Positions 2,569-34,359 of a stretch of 64,000 bases of DNA are shown here, one piece after another. The DNA lies in contig JAJFFH010000024.1 in the NCBI GenBank assembly GCA_021776735.1, positions 87,744 through 151,743 on the forward strand, given 5' to 3'. The translations under genes were made by a program, and so were the position numbers. Each line of letters begins with the position of its first letter. Position 1 is the stretch's first letter. The DNA comes from Planctomycetota bacterium (GTDB taxonomy: Bacteria > Planctomycetota > PLA2). Under the pieces are notes generated by a model. That model searched no databases. It was given only the letters and a program-made list of their open reading frames with translations, and had not been told where the DNA came from.

Positions 2569-3929
2569 GGCACCGGCTCGAACAGGGCCGCGCGCACCTC
2601 ATCAACGCGCTCGGCCCTGCAGATCACGAGACACCGGTCGCCCGGCCCGACCAGCGTCGCGCCGCCGGGCACCAGGGCATCGTCCTTGCGCACGAGCGCC
2701 GCAATGATGGAGTCCGGCGGCAAGACGACCTCCTTGAGTGCCGTGGGCGTGAACGTCTCGGGCACGGTCAGCTCCAGGACCTCGCCCTGGCCCTCGCCCA
2801 GCGTCGCCAACAAATCGACTTCGGCATGCTGGATGGAGTGCAGCACGGCTTCGGTTGCGGCACCACGGGCGGACAGCGGCACATCGATCCCGACGCGCTC
2901 GAAAACACGGCGGTTTTGCGAACTCGAAACGCGCGTCACGACCTTCGGGATGCCAAGCTGCCGGCCCAGTAACGAGGCGAGCAGGTTTTTTTCGTCGCTG
3001 TCGGTCACCGCGACCAGTGCGCGCGCGTGGCGTACGCGTTCGGTCTCGAGCAGGTCGAGGTCGCAGCCGTCGCCGTGCAGAACCAGGGTCCGCGAAAGTG
3101 CGTGCGCGACATGCGCGCAGCGGTCGGCATCGTGTTCGATCAACTTGATCCGCACGCGCGGATTGCGCTCCATGGACCGTGCCAGGCGCAGCCCGACGGT
3201 GCCGCCGCCGACGATGACGACCTCGCCGCCCTTGTCGCCACCAAGGTGGCGCGCCGCCCACGCCGCGAGCTGCTGCATCGCATCGGCCCGCCCCATGAAC
3301 AGCACGCGGTCACCCGTGGTCAGAATGCTCTGCCCGCGGGGTACGAACCACTCGTCGCCGCGCGTCACGCCGACAATCAACACGCCCGGAGGAAGCACGC
3401 GCAGATCCGCAAGGGGCCGATCCACCAGGGGCAGCTCGCCGGTAAGCCGGTACTCGAGCAGGCCGATCCGACCGCCCGCGAACGAACCCACGTCGGTCGC
3501 GCCGGGCACGGCGAGCACCTTTTCGATCTTGTCCGCGAGCATGCGCGCAGGCCAGATGAGCCGGTCGATCCCGAGCTGCGGCGCGCCGCTGACCACGCCG
3601 CCGTCCCCCGCGGCAAACGTGCGGACGTACTCCTCCTTGCCCACAAAGCAGATCGTCTTGGGCGAGCCCAGACGCCGCGCCGTGAGGCAACTGAGGATGT
3701 TCATCTCGTCCGAACGCGAGCAGGCAATCAGATAGTCAGCCTTCCCCGCACCGGCACGCTCGAGCACGTCGGCGTCGTTGCCGGCGCCCTCGAGCAGCTC
3801 CACGTCGAGTTTCTCAAGCTCGCCCCGCCCGTCCTCGCCGTCGTGCACGACCGACACGTCATGGTTGACGCTCAACTCGGCCGCGAACTGCCGGGCGACG
3901 TTCCCGTTGGACACGAGCACTATGCGCAT
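2565..3929 (-). CDS. trkA: TrkA potassium transporter peripheral NAD-binding subunit (two RCK_N/RCK_C modules)
   Basis: 454 aa with two Rossmann GxGxxG segments (VLVSNGNVARQ..., VVIVGGGTVGLRLA). Operonic with trkH. Confidence 0.9.
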   Translation of the reverse strand: MRIVLVSNGNVARQFAAELSVNHDVSVVHDGEDGRGELEKLDVELLEGAGNDADVLERAGAGKADYLIACSRSDEMNILSCLTARRLGSPKTICFVGKEEYVRTFAAGDGGVVSGAPQLGIDRLIWPARMLADKIEKVLAVPGATDVGSFAGGRIGLLEYRLTGELPLVDRPLADLRVLPPGVLIVGVTRGDEWFVPRGQSILTTGDRVLFMGRADAMQQLAAWAARHLGGDKGGEVVIVGGGTVGLRLARSMERNPRVRIKLIEHDADRCAHVAHALSRTLVLHGDGCDLDLLETERVRHARALVAVTDSDEKNLLASLLGRQLGIPKVVTRVSSSQNRRVFERVGIDVPLSARGAATEAVLHSIQHAEVDLLATLGEGQGEVLELTVPETFTPTALKEVVLPPDSIIAALVRKDDALVPGGATLVGPGDRCLVICRAERVDEVRAALFEPVP

Positions 3930-5242: not shown

Positions 5243-5571
5243 TTGAGACGTTTTCCAATCCCCGTCCGGAACGCGACTACGACATCGTGATCGAGTCCCC
5301 GGAGTTCACGTCGGTCTGCCCCAAGACCGGGCTGCCGGATTTCGGGACGATCACGATCCGCTATGTGCCCGACCAGCTCTGCATCGAACTGAAGTCGCTG
5401 AAGTACTACCTCCTCGACTACCGCAACAAGGGCATCTTCTACGAGGCGGTCGTGAACACGATCCTGGACGACCTCGTTGCGGCGTGCGCTCCGCGGCGCA
5501 TGGAGGTCACCGGCGCATTCACTGCCCGCGGCGGTATCACGACGAATGTTGTGGCCCGCCACCCGGCGTAG
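5236..5571 (+). CDS. queF: NADPH-dependent 7-cyano-7-deazaguanine (preQ0) reductase QueF, unimodular type
   Basis: 111 aa with the catalytic Cys context [12 protein letters not shown] and the QueF motif ELKSLKYYL. Confidence 0.9.
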
Positions 5572-6427
5572 CCGGCATGGCCGGGCTGACCGGACCCGCG
5601 TAGGTGTTGAGAAACAGCGCGCCTTCCGCGCGTTCGCGCAAGAGCACGGCCAGCGTCTTCGCGGTGTAGGTCGGCTCGACAAGAAGCCCCGCCGCGCGCG
5701 CGGCTTCCATGGCGGCGTCCACCGCGGGCGTGGTCTCGCCGTACGCGCCTTCGCCCTTCACGACGCGCAGCCGGACGGTCTTGCGCGGCCGGGGCAAGTC
5801 GGGATTGCAGCGCCGCGCCAGACGCGCCGCCCGCCGCGCGCGCCCCTTCAAGCCCGGCGGCGACGGCGCCACGCGCACGGCCACGATCTCGGTCGTCACG
5901 CCGCGCAACATGAAGCCCGCCAGGAGCCCGCTCACGGTCGTTCCGCTACCGAGCGGCACATAGATGCGCTCCGGGACGGGATCGATCTCGAACGCGGCCT
6001 CGACATAGCCGAATGCGCCGCGCGCGGACGCCCCACCGGGCGGGATGATGCGCGTCCCGGGCCTCCAAAGCATCGCCGTCCGTAGCAGGGCGCTCAAAAT
6101 TCCGCCGACCTCCACGATGCGCGCGGCGACTTTGGGAAGCGCGCGGTACGCACCCGTCGGTTGCCCCCGGCTGATGAGGATCACGTCGCAGGGTGCCGGC
6201 GCGTGCACGGCGGTGGCGTAGGCGTGGTGGGCGGAGAGAGTGCTATAGGTCAAGAAGCGTACGGACGGCGATGCCATCAGGAACTGGAGGGCACGCGGCT
6301 TGTTGCCGGCGTAGTTCGGGCAGCAGCGATCCTCGCGCTTGACAAGGAAATCGAGGCCGGCGACCGTCACGGGCTCGACGGGGGTCGGCCGGACGCCGAG
6401 GTCGAGCCGAGCCGCGTTCAGGCGCAT
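5537..6427 (-). CDS. PLP-dependent enzyme of the ACC deaminase / D-cysteine desulfhydrase family
   Basis: Carved from the C-terminal 296 aa of the 930-aa shadow ORF: ...[18 protein letters not shown]... and the Gly-rich PLP loop [17 protein letters not shown]. Start ATG at 6427 (alternative 6442). Converges on and overlaps the queF 3-prime end. Confidence 0.7.
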
Positions 6428-6506
6428 CCCGTTCTGGCGCATTCGGGGGAGGATACACCCGGGTACACTGCCCGCCGTGCGTGTCACGATCGACGATCCG
6501 CCGACG

Positions 6507-6809
6507 ATGAACATCCTCGGCCTTTTTCTGGCCTCCTCCCTGCGCCGCAACCTGATCGAGCGCGGGCGTTCCTGCACGCTGACTGGCGTGCTCGCGATCG
6601 ACGCCGACGGCATGCACGCCGCGGTCCGGTTTGAAAAGGACGGCGTAACCGTGACGCGCCAGGAAGCCGAGCCGCGTACGCGCATCGCCGGGCCGCTGTC
6701 GCTGCTGGTCGGCGCCCTTGTGCGGCCCCGGCTCGGGACGCTGTTGCGCATCAAGGTGCGCGGCAGCCGATTGTTTGCTCTTCGCGCGCTCAGGTTCTTT
6801 GGCGCATGA
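6507..6809 (+). CDS. SCP2 sterol-carrier-like domain protein
   Basis: About 100 aa, MNILGLFLASSLRRNL...GVLAIDADGMHAAVRFEKDG...LRIKVRGSRLFALRALRFFGA. ATGA overlap with the downstream FAD oxidase. Confidence 0.6.
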   Translation: MNILGLFLASSLRRNLIERGRSCTLTGVLAIDADGMHAAVRFEKDGVTVTRQEAEPRTRIAGPLSLLVGALVRPRLGTLLRIKVRGSRLFALRALRFFGA

Positions 6810-12737: not shown

Positions 12738-12760
12738 ACCGCCGTCCGAATCCCGAAGGG

Positions 12761-12780
12761 AGCAAACGGACGGCGATGTT
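12761..12780 (+). repeat. copy of the dispersed motif (AGCAAACGGACGGCGATGTT; core at 12766-12777)
   Basis: Exact 12-mer with the GCAAAC flank, between the convergent 3-prime ends of the Sel1 gene and the 12802..13635 gene. Flanked by short complementary runs (CCCGAA ... TTCGGG). Confidence 0.8.
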
Positions 12781-22894: not shown

Positions 22895-23000
22895 CGTCCA
22901 CTTTCCGGGACAATCCGGGGCGCCACACAGCCTTGCGGGGTCGCTATGATGGCCCCGCTCGACAAGCGCGCGTGGCACGGGGTTTGACCATGCCCGGGCG

Positions 23001-24086
23001 ATGACGAGTTCTGTCGCCGTGCCGCCCCCCGCCGATACCGCCCAGCCGGACTGCGAGTTCCGGCGCCTTGACCCCACGGATCCGGCGTGGCAGGCCTTGC
23101 TCACAACCCACCCCCTCGCGGAGTCGGTGCGGCCGATGTGGGAAGAGGTCGCCGGGTGGGAAGCGATTCGGATCGGGAAGTTCACGGACGGCGATGTCCA
23201 GGCCGGAATCCAGTTCCACACCCGCGGCCTCCCCGGCCTGCCGTGGCGCCTCGCACGCATCACACAACTCCTGCCCACACCGATCGCGGACCGATCGCAG
23301 GCCTGCACGGCAGCGCTCCTGGCCGAAGCCGAACGCGTTGCGTGGGAACGCCGGGTCGTGGAAATCGAGTTCCGGGCGCACATCCCGGTGCCCGACATGA
23401 TCGACGCCCACGGGTTCCACTCGGGCATCGGCAAAGGGCTCGACCAGGCCGGTTACACGCAGGTTCCGGAGTTCAACGGCACCTACTTCGTCGATATTGA
23501 CCGCAGCGACGAGGAGCTCCTCCTCTCGTTCAAGAAAACCACGCGCAGCGAGGTCCGCCGCCCGAAGAAGAAGGGTTGCCGAATCGAAAGGGGCGACGAA
23601 TCCCTGCTTGAAACCCTGTTCGACGGGTACGCCGCTATGGGCGCGCGCAAGGGTCTCGGCGAAACAACGTTGCCGCGCCCGTTCGTGGTGGATCACATGA
23701 AACCGCTGGTACAGGCGGGCCATGTGCACCTGTACTACGCTGCGTACGGCGACGACATCAGCGACATCGCCCTGATCGATGCCCTCGGCACACCGATCAA
23801 CATGCAGTCGGTACGCCTGACCGCCAGCCTGTCGAACAAGTACCCGTCAGCCGCGCGCCGCCTCCACTACGTCATCATGACGATGCTCCGCGACGAGGGC
23901 AAAAAGCTGTACGACCTCGGCGGCAGCCCGGCGCCGGTCCCGATCCCCGGCCATCCGAACTACGGCGTCTGGCAGCACAAGTACCACTACAAGGGCACCT
24001 ACGTCCCGTACATCCCCCGCTTTCGCAAGGCACGAAGCCGCTTCGGTGCCAACCTCGCCCGAACCGTCCGCTTCGTCCGCGACTGA
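23001..24086 (+). CDS. FemAB-family (GNAT-fold aminoacyl-transferase-like) protein, copy 1
   Basis: 361 aa with the FemAB-like C-terminal half (...LHYVIMTMLRDEGKKLYDLGG...). Proteins of this kind are described next to exosortase/PEP-CTERM polysaccharide loci. Contains an in-frame copy of the dispersed 12-mer (FTDGDVQ). Confidence 0.65.
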   Translation: MTSSVAVPPPADTAQPDCEFRRLDPTDPAWQALLTTHPLAESVRPMWEEVAGWEAIRIGKFTDGDVQAGIQFHTRGLPGLPWRLARITQLLPTPIADRSQACTAALLAEAERVAWERRVVEIEFRAHIPVPDMIDAHGFHSGIGKGLDQAGYTQVPEFNGTYFVDIDRSDEELLLSFKKTTRSEVRRPKKKGCRIERGDESLLETLFDGYAAMGARKGLGETTLPRPFVVDHMKPLVQAGHVHLYYAAYGDDISDIALIDALGTPINMQSVRLTASLSNKYPSAARRLHYVIMTMLRDEGKKLYDLGGSPAPVPIPGHPNYGVWQHKYHYKGTYVPYIPRFRKARSRFGANLARTVRFVRD

Positions 24087-24140
24087 CGAGCCCGTCCGAC
24101 CGACAGCCCGAGGCTCATCGCGCAGGAATCCCGAGAAAGC

Positions 24141-24381
24141 CCACGGACGGCGATGTGTGCCCGAACCGCACATCCGCGCGGCAGGATTGCCTGGCACCAA
24201 TCAGGCTCGCAGTGCGGCAGGATTACATGGCACCGTCCCGGCTGACAGTGCAGCACGATTACGTGGCACCAATCAAGGCCGGGTGGTCGGCGTGCGTAAC
24301 CGATTGTCGCTAAACGGCTTGCGACGAATTCGCGCCGCTGCGGGCGGCGTCCCCGGGACATCGCCGTCCGTTTGCTTGCTG
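24141..24381 (+). repeat. composite intergenic repeat element A: inverted copies of the dispersed motif (24143-24154 and 24360-24371) flanking three 36-bp direct repeats (24178-24285) that each contain TGGCACC
   Basis: Repeat units GCGGCAGGATTGCCTGGCACCAATCAGGCTCGCAGT / GCGGCAGGATTACATGGCACCGTCCCGGCTGACAGT / GCAGCACGATTACGTGGCACCAATCAAGGCCGGGTG. TGGCAC at 24192, 24228 and 24264, exactly 36 bp apart. Confidence 0.75.
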
Positions 24382-24445
24382 CAGGATCCGCCGAGCCAAT
24401 GCCGCGGGCTAAGGCGTGCGCGGTGCTAGAACCGATGGAAGATTC

Positions 24446-26404
24446 GTGTGCGGCATAGCGGGATGGTTCCAACAAGACGGTGCGCCCGTCGACCCCTCGG
24501 TGCTGCGGGCGATGGGCGATGTCATCGAGCATCGCGGCCCCGATGAGGAGGGTTTTTTTCTCAGTCGATCGGAGCCGCCGCCGGAGTGGCCGGCCGGGGT
24601 GCCGCTACGCTGCGCTGGACCAGGCGTGGGCGAAGTGGGCTTTGCCCATCGCCGGCTGTCCATCATCGACCTCAAAACCGGGCAACAGCCGCTCTGCAAC
24701 GAGGACGGCACGGTCTGGATCGCCTTCAACGGCGAGGTCTACAACTTTGCCGGACTCAAGACCGAGTTGGAGGCCAAGGGCCACCGCTTCCGCACGAACT
24801 CCGACACCGAAACCATCGTCCACGGGTGGGAAGAGTGGGGTGAGGGCGTCGCCGAACGGCTCCGCGGCATGTTCGCGCTGGCGGTCTGGGATGCGAAGAA
24901 GCGTTCGCTCTACCTGGCTCGCGATCGCCTCGGGAAAAAGCCGCTGTACTACCTGCACGACGGCAAGCGCTTCCTGTTCGGCTCCGAAATCAAGTCGATC
25001 CTCGAGGTGCCCGGCGTGTCGCGCGACATCGATCCCATCGCGCTGTCGGACTACCTGTCCTTGCTCTACGTCCCGGCGCCGCGCTCGATCTTTCGCGCGG
25101 TCTCAAAGCTCCCGGCCGGCCATCACGCGATCGTGACGCCGGACCGGATGACGGTGAAGCCCTATTGGGACCTGTCGTTCGAGCCCGTGGACGAGGCGCC
25201 GCAGAGCGAACAAGAGGGGCGGCTGCTGGAGATCCTCGGCGACGCGACGGACATGCGCATGATGTCCGAGGTTCCGCTGGGCGCGTTCTTGTCCGGCGGC
25301 GTCGATTCCTCCGGCATCGTCGCGCTCATGGCCGGCCTGTCCGACCAGCCGGTGAAGACCGCGTCCATCTCGTTTAGCGAGAAGGCCTACGACGAGTCGC
25401 CGCACGCCCAAAGAGTCGCGGAGTTGTTCGGCACCGAGCACCACGTCATGCGGGTGACGCCGGACGCGGTCTCTGTCGTCGAGAAGCTGGCCTGGCACTA
25501 CGACGAGCCATTCGCGGACTCGTCCGCGGTCCCGACGTACTACGTCTCGAAGATCGCCCGCGAAAAGGTCACTGTCGCCCTTTCCGGCGACGGCGGCGAC
25601 GAGAATTTCGCTGGCTATCGCCGCTACGCGATCGACGCGCTCGAGCACCGCATCCGCGGCATGATGCCGCGCGGCCTCCTCGCGCTGGCGGGCCGGCTGT
25701 ACCCGAAGGCGGACTGGCTACCGCAGCCGCTACGCGCCAAGACCGTGCTCTCGAACGCCGCGCGCGACCCCGCGGCAGCGTATTGCCACACGATGTCGTT
25801 CCTGCACGAGGCCGACAAGCGTCGCCTGCTCGCCCCGGGCATGCTCGCCGCCCTCGACGGACACGAAACAGTGGAACTCTTTCGCCGCCACTACGACGCC
25901 GCGCGCGCGAACGACCATCTCTCGCGCCTGCAGTACCTGGACATCAAGACCTACCTCTGCGACGACATCCTGGTCAAGGTGGACCGGGCAAGCATGGCGA
26001 ACAGCCTGGAAGTACGCTGCCCGATTCTCGACCACGTCTTCATGGAGTACGCCGCGACGATCCCCAAGGACCGCAAGCTCAAGGGCAAGGACGGCAAGCA
26101 CATCCTCAAGAAGGCGTTCGGCCGGTTGCTTCCGGAAGACATCCTCTACCGCAAGAAGATGGGCTTCCGCGTCCCGATCAAGGAGTGGCTGCGAACCGAC
26201 CTCAAGGACTTCGCCCACGACCTGATCGTGAACGGCGCGGGCACCCAGACCTACCTCCAGGCCAACGAGGTCAGCCGCCTGTGGAACCAGCACCAGGGCG
26301 GCATGCGCGACCGCGCCACGGAGCTCTGGACACTCCTGATGTTCAACCTGTGGCACAAGACCTTCGTAGAACGCGGCTCCCCGATCGCCACGACCTCGGC
26401 CTGA
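24446..26404 (+). CDS. asnB: asparagine synthase (glutamine-hydrolysing)-family amidotransferase
   Basis: Start GTG 24446 gives M-CGIAG (Cys2 nucleophile). N-terminal Ntn glutaminase domain and C-terminal PP-loop SGGVDSS. The ORF tool's upstream start at 24416 is also GTG. Confidence 0.9.
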   Translation: MCGIAGWFQQDGAPVDPSVLRAMGDVIEHRGPDEEGFFLSRSEPPPEWPAGVPLRCAGPGVGEVGFAHRRLSIIDLKTGQQPLCNEDGTVWIAFNGEVYNFAGLKTELEAKGHRFRTNSDTETIVHGWEEWGEGVAERLRGMFALAVWDAKKRSLYLARDRLGKKPLYYLHDGKRFLFGSEIKSILEVPGVSRDIDPIALSDYLSLLYVPAPRSIFRAVSKLPAGHHAIVTPDRMTVKPYWDLSFEPVDEAPQSEQEGRLLEILGDATDMRMMSEVPLGAFLSGGVDSSGIVALMAGLSDQPVKTASISFSEKAYDESPHAQRVAELFGTEHHVMRVTPDAVSVVEKLAWHYDEPFADSSAVPTYYVSKIAREKVTVALSGDGGDENFAGYRRYAIDALEHRIRGMMPRGLLALAGRLYPKADWLPQPLRAKTVLSNAARDPAAAYCHTMSFLHEADKRRLLAPGMLAALDGHETVELFRRHYDAARANDHLSRLQYLDIKTYLCDDILVKVDRASMANSLEVRCPILDHVFMEYAATIPKDRKLKGKDGKHILKKAFGRLLPEDILYRKKMGFRVPIKEWLRTDLKDFAHDLIVNGAGTQTYLQANEVSRLWNQHQGGMRDRATELWTLLMFNLWHKTFVERGSPIATTSA

Positions 26405-26435
26405 TTCGAGCCGGAATCCACTCCGGGGCGGAAGC

Positions 26436-26650
26436 AGACGGACGGCGATGCCTCCGGCTCCGGGGTCAGTCGAACGCGTCCGTCGGCGTCGAGGCCGCCG
26501 AGTACGGGTGCCAGGTAATCCTGCTGCCATCACCGGCCGGCAACAGCAGGATCCCCTGGCACCGTACCGGCAGCACGGCAGCAGGATCCCCTGGCACCGT
26601 ACCTCTGGCACCGTACCTCGTGGCACCGTACCTCGCCGTCCGTACGCTCC
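26436..26650 (+). repeat. composite intergenic repeat element B: inverted copies of the dispersed motif (26438-26449 and variant 26633-26644) flanking an imperfect inverted repeat (26506-26528 / 26546-26568) and a 15-bp x3 tandem array of TGGCACCGTACCTC(G)
   Basis: GGGTGCCAGGTAATCCTGCTGCC ... CAGCAGGATCCCCTGGCACCGTACC. TGGCAC at 26557, 26592, 26606 and 26621. The unit GCAGCAGGATNNCCTGGCACC is shared with element A. Confidence 0.75.
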
Positions 26651-26780
26651 GGTTCTCGAGCGCCCGCCGCGGGCCGAAGGCCCGTCGGTGCGCCTGCCAA
26701 AAAAAGGCGAGCAGCGGCTTTTTGGCCCGGAGTTCGCGCTACCCCACGCAACAGGCCGATTCTGTTCATAGAATCCGACA

Positions 26781-27887
26781 TTGCGGACACCTACGTTGCT
26801 GACCCCCACCATTTCCACGATTTCGAGTAGCTCGACCGTGACAATCGCGACCCCCTCCCTCGTGCGTGCGTTCCGAACATCGGACGCTCCCGCATGGGAC
26901 GAGTATGTGACGCGACATCCGCGGGCCACGTTTTTTCACCAGACCGGCTGGAAGCGCGTGCTCGAGCGGGCGTTCCCGCACGCTGCGTACTACCTCGTGG
27001 CCGAGCGCGCCGGCGCGATCTGCGGGGTGCTGCCGATGTTCTTGTGCCGCGGACTTCGAGGCCGGCTCGGCCTCTACTCGCTGCCGCACACTGTCTTCGG
27101 CGGTCCGCTCGGCGACGACCGCGCCGTGGAGGAATCGCTGCTTGCCGCCGCCCACAACCTGGGCTCCTCGCTCGGCGCACGCGTCCTGGAACTGCGCAAC
27201 CGCTACGAGAACCTGCTCGACCTGCCCGTCCACGAGGGCAACGTCACCTTCGAAAAGGAGCTGCCGGCCACGGTGGACGAGGTCAGGGGCACGTTCCCCA
27301 AGAACGCACGCGCGGCGATCAATCAGGCAGTGAAACGCAACGGGCTCTCCGCCGCGTTCACGCAGGAGCTCGACGTCTTCTACGAAATCCTGGGACAGAC
27401 TTACCACCGGCTCGGATCGCCCCTCTTTCCGCGCGAGTTCTTCGCCGCGATGCGCGACGAGTTCCCGGACGACGCGTTGATCCACGTCGTTCGCCAAGGC
27501 GACACGCCCGTCGCCGCCGCGCTCTGCCTGTGCTGGCGCGGCATCATCAGTCCGGTGTACAGCGGCCAGGCGCCCGGCGCACAACGGCTCAATGCCGACA
27601 ACTTCAAGTACTTCGACATCATGCGCGAGGCCGTCGCCCGCGGCATGACGCACTTCGACCTCGGCAAGACCCGCACGTCCAACACCGGCGGGATGAGGTT
27701 CAAGAAGCACCAGGGCTTTGTCCCGACGGCCCTGCCGTACCAGACCGTCGAGCTCGTGCCCGGCGCGGGCGACGACGGCTCCGATCCGACCAGCGGCTTC
27801 TTCATGAAAGCGCGGCGCATCTGGAGTCGCATGCCGGCCGGCGTGGCCGGTGTTCTCGGTCGGCGTCTGATCCGCTTTTTTCCGTAG
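26781..27887 (+). CDS. FemAB-family protein, copy 2
   Basis: 368 aa, paralogous in architecture to 23001..24086 (HQTGWKRVLERAF..., ...YFDIMREAVARGMTHFDLGKT...). Confidence 0.65.
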   Translation: MRTPTLLTPTISTISSSSTVTIATPSLVRAFRTSDAPAWDEYVTRHPRATFFHQTGWKRVLERAFPHAAYYLVAERAGAICGVLPMFLCRGLRGRLGLYSLPHTVFGGPLGDDRAVEESLLAAAHNLGSSLGARVLELRNRYENLLDLPVHEGNVTFEKELPATVDEVRGTFPKNARAAINQAVKRNGLSAAFTQELDVFYEILGQTYHRLGSPLFPREFFAAMRDEFPDDALIHVVRQGDTPVAAALCLCWRGIISPVYSGQAPGAQRLNADNFKYFDIMREAVARGMTHFDLGKTRTSNTGGMRFKKHQGFVPTALPYQTVELVPGAGDDGSDPTSGFFMKARRIWSRMPAGVAGVLGRRLIRFFP

Positions 27888-27896
27888 TCCCGTCCC

Positions 27897-29120
27897 ATGC
27901 GCGTCCTGACCTTTACCACCCTCTACCCGAACGGCGCCATGCCGAACCACGGCATGTTCGTGCGCAAGCGTATGGAAGCCGTCGCGCGGCGCCCGGGCGT
28001 CGAGGTGGTGGTCGTGGCGCCGGTGCCGTCCGCACCGAGGCTGCCGGGCTGGTCACGCGCCAAAGTGTTTTCCAGCGTGCCCAAGGCCGAAGAGATCGGC
28101 GGACTCTCCGTGCACCACCCGCGCTTCTTGTCGCTCCCCGGCGAGTGGGCCCGTCTCAAGCCGCGCTGGATCGCCCGTGGCGCCTGGGCATGCGTCCAGG
28201 CCTTGCATCGCGCGCAGCCGTTTGACATCGTCGATGCGCACTTTGCCCGCCCCGACGGCGCGGCCGCGGCGGAAATCGCGCGCCGCATCGGCCTGCCGCT
28301 CGTGCTGAGCGTGCGAGGTTCCGACATCCACCGCGACCTCGAACGCCCGCGCACAAGGCCGCTCGTCCTCGCGACGCTCCGCGCGGCGGCGTCCGTCATC
28401 TCGGTGGCGCAACCGCTGACCGACAAGATGATCGCCGCCGGGATCGCCGCGGACAAGATCGCCACGATCCCGAACGGCATCGATCTCGCCCGCTGGTCGC
28501 ACGTGGACCGCGACGCGGCGCGCGCCGAGCACGGAGTTGCGGACCAGCGCCGCATCGTCCTGAGCGTCGCCGCGATGAAGCCCGTGAAGGGCCACGACAC
28601 GTTGATCGAAGCCTTCGCGACGTTGGGTACGGACGGCGATATCTCCGACACGGAGCTGTGGCTCGCGGGCGCCGGTCCGTTGCACGACGAACTCCGGCGC
28701 CGCGTGGCGCAACTCGGCCTCACAAAACGCGTGCGTTTTCTGGGTGCCGTGCCGCACGACAAGCTGCCCTCGCTGTATGCCGCCGCGGACATCTTCGCGC
28801 TGCCGAGCCGCAACGAGGGCTGCCCGAACGTCGTGCTGGAGGCGCTTGCCTCCGGCTGTCCGGTCGCCGCAACGGCGGTCGGACACGTACCGCACATGGT
28901 GCGCAACCGCGAGAACGGCCTCGTTGTTCCCGCGGACGATCCCCGCGCCTTCGCTCTTGCGTTGCGCGCACTTCTGAAAACATCGCCGTCACGGACTGTA
29001 GTCCGAGCCACCGTGGCCGACTGCACCTGGGACGACGTCGCCGCACGGGTAGCCGGCGTCTTCCAAGGCGCCCTGGACCTGAAACCGAACACGGAAACGA
29101 GCATCTCCCAATGCGGGTAA
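27897..29120 (+). CDS. glycosyltransferase, GT4 (group 1) family
   Basis: 407 aa. C-terminal GT-B segment ...FLGAVPHDKLPSLYAAADIFALPSRNEGCPNVVLEALASGCPVAATAVG... Contains an in-frame copy of the 12-mer (GTDGDIS). Confidence 0.8.
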   Translation: MRVLTFTTLYPNGAMPNHGMFVRKRMEAVARRPGVEVVVVAPVPSAPRLPGWSRAKVFSSVPKAEEIGGLSVHHPRFLSLPGEWARLKPRWIARGAWACVQALHRAQPFDIVDAHFARPDGAAAAEIARRIGLPLVLSVRGSDIHRDLERPRTRPLVLATLRAAASVISVAQPLTDKMIAAGIAADKIATIPNGIDLARWSHVDRDAARAEHGVADQRRIVLSVAAMKPVKGHDTLIEAFATLGTDGDISDTELWLAGAGPLHDELRRRVAQLGLTKRVRFLGAVPHDKLPSLYAAADIFALPSRNEGCPNVVLEALASGCPVAATAVGHVPHMVRNRENGLVVPADDPRAFALALRALLKTSPSRTVVRATVADCTWDDVAARVAGVFQGALDLKPNTETSISQCG

Positions 29121-30539: not shown

Positions 30540-33500
30540 CTACGGGACGCTGACTGTCGCGACGTTGCTCACGTCGCTCATCTGCTTCTCGGTGAGCGCA
30601 ACCAGCGCGACATAGATCGTGCCGGAGGCCGAAACCTCAAACTCGATCGTCTTGCTGGCACCCGCCGCCACCGGGAAAATTCCGGCGGAGTTGGAAGCCC
30701 AAGCCTGGCGAACACCACTGCCGCTGTCATAGGTCGGCGCGATGGGCTCGGTGGACCAGACCAACAGCACGCGCTCGGCATTCGCCGGAGCGGTGAAGCT
30801 CGCCCGCACCTTGCCGCCCGCGACCGAAGCGGACAGGTTCGTGACCTTGCCCGGACGGGCATGGTTGTTCACGCCTTCCTGGATGTGCCACCAGTAGGCG
30901 CGGGTCTCGTAGGAACCGTTCCAGGCCCCGGAGCCCCAGTTGTTGCCGTACGGCGCCTTGCCGTCGCCGACGCCGCCGTCGATGAAGTCGTCGACGAGCG
31001 TTCGGTGGCCTTCCTGGCCGGTGATCTGATACCAGTAGACCTCGGGGTCGATCATGCTCAGGCCCGAACCACTCGACTTGTTGTTGACCTCGTCGTGTCC
31101 GACGTAGTAGCCGAAGCGGCCGCTGTTGAGCTGCCAATCCATGATGCCCCAGAGGAACTGGAACGCCCGCGCTTCATGCTCGGGATGATGGTTGCGCATC
31201 TCGTTGTAGGCCCCGGAGAACGTGCGGGCCATAAAGCCCATCTGGAACGACGCTTCGCCGTTCTTGCGGAAGTTGCCGTAGCGGGGGAAGTAGGTGAACG
31301 TGCGAATCCACTCGAGCCGGTTCTTGATCGCACTCAGAAGCGAGGCATCGCCGGTTACGCGGAACGCTGCCAACGACTGCGCCAGCATGTGCGCCTCGCC
31401 GCGTGTTTCCCAGTTCCACTCGAAGAGACCGTCATCGTCATCCTGGTCCTTGGTGGTGCGCAGGAGCGACCGCTTGCGGAACTCGCCCATCCACTCGTAC
31501 CAGTCCCGAATCCACGGGTTGGCCGACTGGAAGTAGAAGTCCTCCATGTGGTAGAGCCAGCCGTGCTCGTTGTCCCGCGGCTTCCACTCGGTTGTGGAAG
31601 TGCCGGACAGGTACGGCGCGGCCAAGTACGGACGACCGTGGCCGTCGAACGCGCGCCAGCTCTTGCCGCCGTACGGGTTCATGGTCGGGGTGATGGTCGC
31701 GAAGTCAGCCTCGTGCGTGTAGCCGGGGATCCACATGGGGCGTACGTAGATGTCGCCGTAGACCCAGGCCTCGGTCTCGTAGTAGTCCTGGACGCGCCCG
31801 CTGGCGAAGAAGTGTCCGCCACCACGCGGCCAGTCGCCGACCTGGTTGGACTTCTTGCGCTTGGAATCGCCGCCGTAGTTGACCCAACCGAGACGGTACC
31901 GGGCGTGACCCGGATCGCGGTGCTTTTCCTCGAACTGCGGCACCTTGTTGTCGGCGCCGGAGACGAACGACGTGGACATCGAGCCGCCGAGCCCGGGCAC
32001 GGCGCCCGAGTTGGCGTAGTCCGCCGCCGGGATCACCGTGACGGGGTGCCACGTGAAGTTGGCAGCGAGCGCCTCGATCTCGTTGTTCGAGGTGTTGGCG
32101 CCGTGGAAGTAGAGCAGAGTCTCCTTGACGGAGCACTGCATCTCCTCGAGCCAGTACAGGCCCGTGCCGTTGTGGTCGCCGTTGAGGAACATCGAGCTCC
32201 ACTTGGGCCAGAGACGGACGGCGATGTTCTTGTCGCTCTCGATCTCGACCGCGTTCGGCCAGCGCAGCGCCATGTGACGAATCATCACGGCGACGCCCTT
32301 GCTGGAGTCCGAAACGTCGGCCCAACCGAACGACTCGGTGCCGGCCGTGTGCGACCCGCTCTCGAGCGTGCTGTTGTTGCCCGAGTCGCGTACGACCGAG
32401 CTGTGGTCGGTGTTTTGGAAGACGTGACGCCCCGAGCCGAGCGCGCCCTGCCAAACGACGCCGGCCTTGGGGCTCATGCGCACGGTGGCCGAGCCCAGGC
32501 TCGGCTTGAGGTTCAGCGAAACGTCGTCGAAGTACAGCGGCGAGGAGAACTTGACGTTCTTCGCGCCGTTCTGGAGCTGATAGTCGACCTTCACGAACGC
32601 CTTGCCGGCGTACGCGAACAACCGCACGGCGAAGCCGTGGCGATGGTCGGTTGTGCTGTGGTACGAGCCGAGGCTCTCGATGCGGATCACGGCCCGCAGC
32701 GGTCCCGCCTCCTCGACCTTGACGGTGAGGTTGGTGCGGTCGCGACTGCCCTGGACGTCGCCGTCCAGGCGACCGGTGAAGACGGCGCCCTCGCTGGCCC
32801 CGGACTCGATGATCCGCTCGGAGGCGGCGTACGAGCCGTTGCCGTCGGCATCGACGTCAACCGTGTCGAAGATGTTGAAGCCGCTCTTCTTGACGGTGAA
32901 GCGCACCTTGCCCGTGTCGACCGTGACCAGATCGCTGGTCTCGGTGACGTTCAGGGCCATGCTCGGCGCGGGGTTCGCGCCGCCATCCGACTTGAAGAAG
33001 AACGTCGCGTCCCCATCGGCGGGAACTGTGGCCGTGAAGTGTGCGGCAACAAAGCGCAGGCTGTTGTCGCGCGCCCACCAGCGGCTGAGAATCTTGAACT
33101 GCGCGGCGACGGAATTGCCGTCCGCGTCGGTGATGCGGAACTTGTCGATCGACTGGTACTGACCGAAATCCATCGGGATCACCGCGATGACGGGGTGCGC
33201 CGTCGCGCCGTAGCCGGCGGCGTCCTTGACCGTCAGGCGGATGCCGTCACCCTGCGGCGCCTCGTCGTCGGAAGCGACGATGGAGACGCGCACGGGATCG
33301 GCGCCGGTCAACGTGACCTGCGCGACCGCAAGGCCGTCGATGGAGTTGGCGTCCTGAACGGCACTGAACGTGACCGTCTGGATCTGGTCCCAGTTGTCGC
33401 GCGTAAACGTCAGGCTCGCGGGACCGCTGTAGACCAGCGACCCGTCGTTCTCGACGATCTCGATTGCGATGGTAACCGTCTCGGCCGGGAGCGCCGAAAG

Positions 33501-33788
33501 GCGTACCGGCAGCGATGCTTCCGCGCCCTCGGGCACGACAAGCGTCCCGGCCTCGAGCACAACCGTCAGGTCGTTGCTCGGATCGGGCTCAGGTTGCGGA
33601 TCAGGTTCGGGCTCCGGATCGGGCTCCGGCACGCCCGGATCGGGATCCGGGTTGGTCTCGCCCTCATCGGGCGTCGAAACCGCCTCTCCATCATCCTTGA
33701 GCAACTCGCCCAAGGGTGTGCAGGCGGGCAAAAGCAGAAACGCGGCGGCCAACAGTAGCCCTCGCGCTCCGCGAAACAGGTGCGACAT
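30540..33788 (-). CDS. large secreted lipoprotein (about 1080 aa) of unknown function, probably polysaccharide-active
   Basis: Lipobox signal MSHLFRGARGLLLAAAFLLLPAC, acidic PEPEPDP linker, then a long Trp/Tyr-rich body (WVYGDIYVRPMWIPGY..., DFYFQSANPWIRDWYEWMGEF...) resembling carbohydrate-active enzymes. The 1079-aa plus-strand ORF over the same DNA is an Arg/Gly/Val-rich shadow. Confidence 0.65.
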   Translation of the reverse strand: MSHLFRGARGLLLAAAFLLLPACTPLGELLKDDGEAVSTPDEGETNPDPDPGVPEPDPEPEPDPQPEPDPSNDLTVVLEAGTLVVPEGAEASLPVRLSALPAETVTIAIEIVENDGSLVYSGPASLTFTRDNWDQIQTVTFSAVQDANSIDGLAVAQVTLTGADPVRVSIVASDDEAPQGDGIRLTVKDAAGYGATAHPVIAVIPMDFGQYQSIDKFRITDADGNSVAAQFKILSRWWARDNSLRFVAAHFTATVPADGDATFFFKSDGGANPAPSMALNVTETSDLVTVDTGKVRFTVKKSGFNIFDTVDVDADGNGSYAASERIIESGASEGAVFTGRLDGDVQGSRDRTNLTVKVEEAGPLRAVIRIESLGSYHSTTDHRHGFAVRLFAYAGKAFVKVDYQLQNGAKNVKFSSPLYFDDVSLNLKPSLGSATVRMSPKAGVVWQGALGSGRHVFQNTDHSSVVRDSGNNSTLESGSHTAGTESFGWADVSDSSKGVAVMIRHMALRWPNAVEIESDKNIAVRLWPKWSSMFLNGDHNGTGLYWLEEMQCSVKETLLYFHGANTSNNEIEALAANFTWHPVTVIPAADYANSGAVPGLGGSMSTSFVSGADNKVPQFEEKHRDPGHARYRLGWVNYGGDSKRKKSNQVGDWPRGGGHFFASGRVQDYYETEAWVYGDIYVRPMWIPGYTHEADFATITPTMNPYGGKSWRAFDGHGRPYLAAPYLSGTSTTEWKPRDNEHGWLYHMEDFYFQSANPWIRDWYEWMGEFRKRSLLRTTKDQDDDDGLFEWNWETRGEAHMLAQSLAAFRVTGDASLLSAIKNRLEWIRTFTYFPRYGNFRKNGEASFQMGFMARTFSGAYNEMRNHHPEHEARAFQFLWGIMDWQLNSGRFGYYVGHDEVNNKSSGSGLSMIDPEVYWYQITGQEGHRTLVDDFIDGGVGDGKAPYGNNWGSGAWNGSYETRAYWWHIQEGVNNHARPGKVTNLSASVAGGKVRASFTAPANAERVLLVWSTEPIAPTYDSGSGVRQAWASNSAGIFPVAAGASKTIEFEVSASGTIYVALVALTEKQMSDVSNVATVSVP

Positions 33789-34359
33789 TTTCTCCTTTGC
33801 CTCCCCCCGCGAACAGGCAGCGGCCGTGCGCACCATCGAAGCCGATGGCCAAGCCGTTCCCTCGCGCGGGATTCCTCACAAGCTCTTCGGTAACTGGCTG
33901 CCCGCTGCCGGTCTTTCCGGCAGGGAGGGCCCTATAGCTTTGCGCCACCCGGTTTCCCGGGCTTTGCCCTTATCGGAGCCGATGGGAGGAGCCTCTTTTG
34001 CCGCTGGGCCCGGATGATCCGAAACCCGCCGACTTGTCGGCTACCACCGCGCTGGGAGAGGGGCCTGGGGGCCCCGCCAGCTCATCAGCTTCCACCGGGA
34101 ACCTATCTCCCGATGCCGCACAGTCAAATCCGCTCCTATTTCGGGGAAAAAACTGACCGAAAGCAATCTCCGAAAGGCTCAATCCCGACTGGTCGCGTGT
34201 CGATCACTAGAAAGGGGACAACGGCTGGCCAAGCCGGATGTCCCGTTGTGTGCACACGAATCGAAAAACCTGATGAACAGCGACTTTTCGCCGGGATTCC
34301 GCCACTGATATCCGCCACATGGCTGATTCTGTCTGAATAGTCTGCCACGAGCCTCCCCC

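Follow-up and report, generated by a model that had tools for sequence, protein, structure and literature searches.

The stretch of DNA analysed here, called the window below, spans 64 kb at 66% G+C and includes an XrtA/PEP-CTERM exopolysaccharide locus that holds two repeat clusters, elements A and B, in adjacent intergenic regions. The surrounding genes encode a FemAB-like protein (FemAB-1), an XrtA-system amidotransferase (asnB-like, below asnB), a FemAB-family protein (FemAB-2) and a GT4 glycosyltransferase (Table 1). In a homology search the closest named homologues of the amidotransferase came from Planctomycetota MAGs, at about 66% identity. An exact-protein look-up of asnB gave no match, and the homology search then led to two contigs, a Logan contig from the same organism that is identical to the window (L002) and a JGI contig with an 84% identical amidotransferase (L001). 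A scan of 24050-26850 found no intrinsic terminator and no sigma-70-like promoter, and Rfam searches of the same interval (gathering and E-value) returned chance hairpin matches with E 0.27-0.96, far below the gathering scores. The ORF that overlaps element B (26448-26771) has a GC3 of 0.64, against ~0.85 in genes, and no Pfam match. Elsewhere in the window, a c-di-GMP-I riboswitch (Rfam RF01051, 61.5 bits, E 1.3e-09) lies at 33886-33978 (-), directly upstream of a 1098-aa ORF at 30540-33836 (-) that is without an NCBIfam match.

Table 1 Genes and repeat features at the locus, with positions in the window
Feature	Position	Strand	Remark
FemAB-like gene (FemAB-1)	23001-24086		weak match, 28.7 bits to TIGR03019
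Element A, left 19-mer	24138-24156	+	
Element A	24178-24275	+	three degenerate head-to-tail REP units at 24178, 24214 and 24250; exact 36-nt period
Element A, right 19-mer	24358-24376	-	
XrtA-system amidotransferase (asnB-like)	24446-26404		760 bits to TIGR03108
Element B, left flanking 19-mer	26433-26451	+	AGCAGACGGACGGCGATGC; 29 nt past asnB stop codon
REP unit B1	26502-26528	-	+ strand reads tag first, GTAC-G-GGTGCCAGGTAATCCTGCTGCC; left half of REPIN
REP unit B2	26543-26568	+	ACAGCAGGATCCCCTGGCACCGTACC; right half of REPIN
REP unit B3	26578-26603	+	GCAGCAGGATCCCCTGGCACCGTACC; head-to-tail duplicate of B2, 35-nt period
Two truncated REP units (right arm + GTACC tag)	26606-26617, 26621-26632	+	TGGCACCGTACC
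Element B, right flanking 19-mer	26630-26648	-	AGCGTACGGACGGCGAggt on - strand
FemAB-family gene (FemAB-2)	from about 26781		250 bits to TIGR03019
GT4 glycosyltransferase	27897-29120		

Architecture of elements A and B

REPs are short hairpin-forming mobile repeats that are spread through bacterial genomes by a RAYT transposase. Element B (26432-26648) occupies the spacer between asnB and FemAB-2 and consists of three 26-nt units of the form GCRGCAGGATnnCCTGGCACCGTACC, one inverted and two direct, and behind them two truncated units of 12 nt, TGGCACCGTACC; the whole is framed by mutually inverted copies of a dispersed 19-mer. The inverted repeat that the earlier note had described as 17/20 matching with a 15-nt spacer is present, with 20-nt arms at 26507-26526 and 26544-26563 that are complementary at 18/20 positions (90%) and stand 17 nt apart. 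As single-stranded DNA, the B1/B2 dimer folds into one long hairpin (-23.3/-25.7 kcal/mol, z -5.5/-7.0). Units B2 and B3 have the direct repeat CAGCAGGATCCCCTGGCACCGTACC in common (26544-26568 and 26579-26603, 25 nt, 100% identity) and form a tandem of period 35 and 2.1 copies. The array for which three tandem 14-15-bp units had been reported exists at 26592-26635 (period 15, 3.0 copies, 96% matches), but its first 'copy' is the right arm of B3, so that the truly truncated units number two. The right 19-mer adjoins the last of these, with the ATGT tail replaced.

That elements A and B have a repeated unit in common was proposed at the outset and is borne out by six sites of the 18-nt pattern GCAGGATNNCCTGGCACC, three in each. 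At up to three mismatches this pattern occurs at seven sites in 64 kb against 0.76 expected, and six of the seven fall within the two elements, element A having three, all direct (24181, 24217, 24253), and element B two direct and one inverted. The tandem of element A (period 36, 2.7 copies, 75%) has lost the GTAC tag from two of its three units, and element A is an older, decayed cluster of the same REP family as element B. All REP units of the window are intergenic and confined to these two intergenic regions, which amounts to two clusters in 64 kb. The earlier note regarded one composite in two adjacent spaces as unusual, whereas it is ordinary in REP-carrying genomes.

The two related contigs place element B in context. 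L002 ends inside element B, at its second unit; contig breaks of this kind are a typical result of repeated DNA. L001 has the same gene order, but lacks FemAB-1 and element A. The spacer between asnB and the FemAB gene measures 142 nt in L001 compared with 377 nt in the window, and the whole L001 spacer aligns solely to the promoter-proximal ~130 nt of the window spacer, which places element B inside the ~235-265 nt that are missing from L001. Element B is an insertion between asnB and FemAB-2 and not a conserved part of the operon. The two spacers have diverged outside CCGATTCTGTTCATAGAAT (26756-26774; L001 11871-11889), an inverted repeat ATTCT-N6-AGAAT that is kept upstream of the FemAB-family gene in both, which makes it a candidate for an operator or promoter element there. 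A 1.5-kb insertion/deletion also lies beside the other REP cluster (window 22950-24380 compared with L001 9366-9831), where L001 has a 134-aa gene and then asnB directly.

The repeat unit in other Planctomycetota

The consensus of aligned units (47 in one alignment, 54 in another) is GCRGCRGGATTACCYGGCACCGTACC. The unit has 26 nt, in which the imperfect palindrome GCRGCRGG-ATTA-CCYGGCAC leads into a conserved tail, C-GTAC-C; the opposite strand reads 5'-GGTAC-G-palindrome. The stem has a 4-bp core, CRGG/CCYG, around the loop ATTA, with interrupted outer pairs. For a 7-pair helix, 80% of cells are paired over 54 units, compared with 24-59% when the 3' partners are slid, and pair 11-20 (R-Y) covaries in the same units (A-T 28, G-C 10, G-T 13). 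The tag is well kept, its G, T, A and C each being found in 39-42 of 47 units. Single units fold weakly, at -4.5 to -7 kcal/mol with z from +0.2 to -3.1.

As had been expected, the element is not confined to this locus, and the unit is present in other Planctomycetota contigs. A scan of GTDB genomes with CRGCAGGATNNCCTGGCACC returned 80 loci, the source genome not among them, and nearly all of these are single chance matches in unrelated phyla. The sole informative locus, L009, is on a Planctomycetaceae MAG contig, where the - strand has GCGGGATTACCYGGCACCGTACC 9-10 times at 893-1392 and the + strand four times at 2864-3078. Between both arrays lies an ORF (1509-2501) that matches Pfam Y1_Tnp (PF01797) at 32.8 bits, with a cut-off of 23, and NCBIfam NF047646 (REP-associated tyrosine transposase) at E 1.3e-14 and 54 bits, below the curated cut-off of 80. 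When metagenomes were scanned with GGATNNCCYGGCACCGTACC, 54 loci were returned, and at four of these, homologues of the L009 transposase (67-91% identity) lie directly beside units. Together with five loci from a protein look-up, this makes ten RAYT loci, with homologues that are 63-100% identical.

At nine of the ten RAYT loci the units flank the gene in inverted orientation, the closest upstream (-) unit being 66-150 nt away; at L009 and L089, which have long arrays, the closest full upstream unit is about 185 nt from the gene. A (+) unit follows 188-460 nt downstream of the RAYT gene in every locus having downstream DNA, and the GTAC ends of the flanking units face outward. An arrangement of inverted flanking units with outward tags is what defines a RAYT gene with its REPs. 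The proteins are ~330 aa long with an invariant HxH (H60, H62) and Y119, and many of the homologues carry the JGI label 'REP element-mobilizing transposase RayT'. A PDB search with one RAYT sequence gave no match; the family profile alone reached a sole PDB match, 4ER8 (E. coli TnpA-REP), which is weak (E 0.022) and has both catalytic motifs aligned. The C-terminal ~190 residues are conserved and without a Pfam match. Most contigs of homologues P0121-P0240 are 1-2.5 kb long, barely beyond the length of the gene, which fits flanking repeats breaking assemblies. Within the 64-kb window, tblastn found no RAYT gene, and a search for the source organism's own RAYT among Logan homologues gave three, all from other samples.

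Units are also found amid unrelated genes without a transposase gene (L103, L108, L109, L120, L129, L131), and across genomes they adjoin transposase, VanZ, DUF2959, ALAD, MoxR and tRNA genes. The metagenome Ga0187893 has units on five contigs (L089, L103, L109, L120, L129), and the related sample Ga0187892 has a further cluster on L108. Unit spacing is irregular, from 26 to 71 nt, and truncated units are interleaved with full ones in L009 (7), L089 (3), L108 and L120. Inverted dimers in L103, L120 and L131 have a start-to-start spacing of 121-122 nt. L103 and L120 match at 94% identity across 278 nt of the dimer region, up to a tRNA gene on the right, with unrelated left flanks, and L103 has a second dimer copy of 134 nt. 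The dimer with its spacer thereby recurs at 92-94% identity (L103 3175-3450, L103 4353-4486, L120 6540-6817), and two of the three copies are just upstream of a tRNA gene.

We therefore read element B as a REP cluster, BIME-like and with one REPIN, of a family occurring in Planctomycetota, at a probability of roughly 85%. It is assigned to a REP family and not to an operon device because the same unit stands beside a transposase and unrelated genes and is absent from L001. The inverted repeat with its 20-nt arms represents two head-to-head REPs (a REPIN), and the '15-bp minisatellite' is the right arm of B3 plus truncated REP units. A literature search for the literal repeat sequences returned unrelated primer matches only, and the REP family GGTAC-G-GTGCCRGGTAATCCYGCYGC with its clade of ~330-aa RAYTs in Planctomycetota appears to be undescribed.

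The dispersed 19-mer

The 19-nt motif AGCnnACGGACGGCGATGT, or AGC-NN-ACGGACGGCGATGT, is separate from the REP unit. Its 11-mer core ACGGACGGCGA has 25 exact copies in 64 kb, about one per 2.5 kb, and 31 sites at up to one mismatch against 5.6 expected; a 9-mer core occurs 30 times, with full flanks in 25 of the 30. The motif is not palindromic, is found in 14 plus and 11 minus orientations, and the sequence outside the 19 nt is unrelated among copies. Sites include 904, 4096, 12766, 13765, 17727, 24143, 24361, 26438, 26633, 45084, 47491, 54058 and 63455, and several 19-mers lie 16-57 nt past a stop codon, co-oriented with the preceding gene. The inverted 12-mer copies first noticed at element B are part of this set; both are present, although their coordinates were off by one, with ACGGACGGCGA at 26438-26448 (+) and 26633-26643 (-).

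Inverted core pairs are also found elsewhere in the window. At 12740-12776, between convergent genes, an imperfect inverted pair with a 17-nt loop is preceded by an A-run and followed by a T-rich stretch, and by its appearance this 12740/12766 pair looks like a bidirectional terminator. Another pair, 6073-6083 (-) and 6261-6271 (+), lies inside a PLP-dependent enzyme gene (about 5537-6560 (-)) that is apparently intact, its Pfam PALP match being continuous over residues 82-341. The 19-mer is hence tolerated in coding sequence in both orientations. In L001 it occurs once in 12 kb, within coding sequence. A 19-mer 'dialect' in that contig was considered and rejected, given that GACGGCGAT is frequent there but mostly represents D-G-D codons without common flanks. 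The ATG of the 19-mer as a start codon was likewise rejected, as only rmlC (44531) starts there and the other downstream ORFs are short or have a low GC3.

The 19-mer is independent of the REP family: it neither forms the end of an element nor is related to the tandem unit, and the flanking 12-mer of the earlier note belongs to this dispersed motif. That note had seen the motif as a likely member of the tandem unit; the GTACGG... likeness behind that view hangs on the variable NN of one copy, and the REP clusters of other species are without the 19-mer.

Elements A and B are both bracketed by (+,-) 19-mer pairs, which the REP model leaves unexplained. Chance alone does not account for both clusters being bracketed; its probability is about 0.2-2%, a rough estimate made after the pattern was seen. 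The pairing may thus not be coincidental, and the 19-mer pairs could, with low probability, form hairpins that are preferred landing sites for RAYT-mediated REP insertion, or the 19-mer could be an undescribed genome-wide signal of this Planctomycete, uptake-sequence-like or tied to gene 3' ends. The 19-mer may be likened to DNA uptake sequences (Neisseria DUS, Pasteurellaceae USS). It is short and asymmetric, with an invariant core of 9-11 nt and weaker flanks, recurs in either orientation about once per 2.5 kb, both between and within genes, and sometimes forms terminator-like inverted pairs (12740/12766). A difference would be that it is not common to a relative at 84% asnB identity. The unexplained 19-mer is a more interesting loose end than the REP cluster.

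A composite MITE-like element would also account for the bracketing, the segment from 19-mer to 19-mer (26433-26648, and likewise in element A) being the mobile unit, with the 19-mers as TIRs and the REP-like units as cargo. The 19-mers bracket both clusters in one and the same order (+,-), at distances of 195 and 218 nt, and the bracketed segment is similar in size to the DNA that the window has in excess of L001 (~235-265 nt). We nevertheless consider this quite improbable. About 20 of the 25 19-mers are solitary or otherwise arranged, some of them inside intact genes, and the interiors of A and B have no sequence in common beyond the REP units. Moreover, the 19-mer was not found in the REP loci of other species, and its two unconstrained positions would be unusual for an end recognised by a transposase.

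Regulatory readings, proposed mechanism and known relatives

Element B is a genomic parasite of an ordinary kind; it does not serve the operon as a regulatory device. The units might instead be operators of a dimeric transcription factor, or activating sites of a PEP-CTERM response regulator, that control asnB and the FemAB genes, and the core CAGG-N4-CCTG is a small dyad, of which this exopolysaccharide locus has three sites in one intergenic region and three in the next. Such a role is very improbable. The sites are absent from the orthologous spacer of L001, although the conserved CCGATTCTGTTCATAGAAT is kept there, the same units stand elsewhere beside transposase, VanZ, DUF2959, ALAD, MoxR and tRNA genes, their spacing is irregular (26 to 71 nt) and truncated half-units are common. 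Of the two roles initially offered for the inverted repeat, the hairpin thus stands (-23 to -26 kcal/mol as single-stranded DNA) and the dimeric regulator site does not, the arms being REP units that L001 lacks.

There is next to no probability that the TGGCAC-containing units are sigma-54 (-24/-12) promoters. Every unit has a perfect -24-like TGGCAC and 3/6 window units have GC at the -12 position, but this reading fails because the -12 positions are unconserved over 47 units (G19/C16/T6/A6 and G20/C13/A9/T5, with TGGCAC-N5-TTGC expected). In addition, the conserved parts, the upstream half GCAGGATTACC and the GTACC tail, are without a counterpart in sigma-54 promoters, and units occur in both orientations and as half-units. 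A CRISPR-like array, a CsrA-sponge RNA, iterons and Tn7-type end sites were rejected on the basis of irregular spacing, half-units, transposase association and varied gene neighbourhoods.

For the REP cluster, a mechanism can be proposed by analogy. It is established that E. coli TnpA-REP and IS200/IS605 transposases cleave and rejoin DNA at a folded single-stranded hairpin. The units of element B would be non-autonomous and mobilised in trans by a RAYT, an HUH/Y1 transposase with a single-copy gene at another site in the genome; this enzyme would recognise the folded single-stranded hairpin together with the tag and cut and rejoin beside the tag, probably on the lagging-strand template. The cluster most likely grew by local tandem duplication, of which the 35-nt period of B2/B3 would be a sign, and the truncated TGGCACCGTACC units may stem from slippage or from errors in cutting and rejoining at the tag. 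For the operon, any consequence would be secondary; in the transcript, the REPIN hairpin could change the stability of the asnB 3' end or read-through. If the REP reading is true, the source genome should contain RAYT genes flanked by GCAGCAGGATnnCCTGGCACCGTACC and many further extragenic units.

IS200/IS605 elements are alike in having a Y1 HUH transposase and subterminal hairpins that are recognised as single-stranded DNA. However, each of them has one left end and one right end that differ from each other, and it is the entire IS that is repeated, whereas here both sides of the gene carry one unit, inverted and often several times, and the unit is also frequent without the gene. The resemblance to REP/REPIN-RAYT systems (E. 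coli REP, Pseudomonas REPINs, Stenotrophomonas SMAGs and the GTAG-tagged families of Di Nocera et al. 2013, PMC3733652) lies in several features: a short imperfect palindrome, a conserved unpaired terminal tetranucleotide, an extragenic location, occurrence as singletons, head-to-head dimers 20-100 nt apart, head-to-tail repeats and mixed clusters, identical units, inverted and with tags outward, on both sides of one HUH/Y1 transposase gene, and presence or absence that varies among close relatives. REPs and RAYTs are documented in the Planctomycete R. baltica (PMC3733652), and the layout of tag and hairpin is that of the GTAG-tagged REPs in the same work. The tag found here, GTAC, nonetheless differs from the canonical GTAG/GTGG and is outside the variants listed there (GTAG, GYAG, GYRG, GTRG, GTMG, GTGG), the core stem is merely 4 bp with interrupted outer pairs, and tandem truncated half-units are unusually frequent. 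The Planctomycete protein, at ~330 aa, is twice as long as E. coli TnpA-REP (165-residue chain), with a conserved C-terminal half and an NCBIfam score under the cut-off.

For annotation, elements A and B should be labelled REP clusters and not regulatory architecture of the XrtA/PEP-CTERM locus. Such repeats break short-read assemblies, as in L002 and most RAYT contigs, are likely to vary among strains and, through the REPIN hairpin, could alter asnB transcript stability. This Planctomycetota family extends REPIN-RAYT systems, which have mostly been studied in Proteobacteria, by a variant tag. A Myxococcales MAG (L061) has two tandem 23-nt units GGCAG(A/G)ATCACCTGGCACCACC at 1968-2015, just past a stop codon; their core is the same as that of the Planctomycete REP, without the GTAC tag, and they may represent a related family or a chance match.
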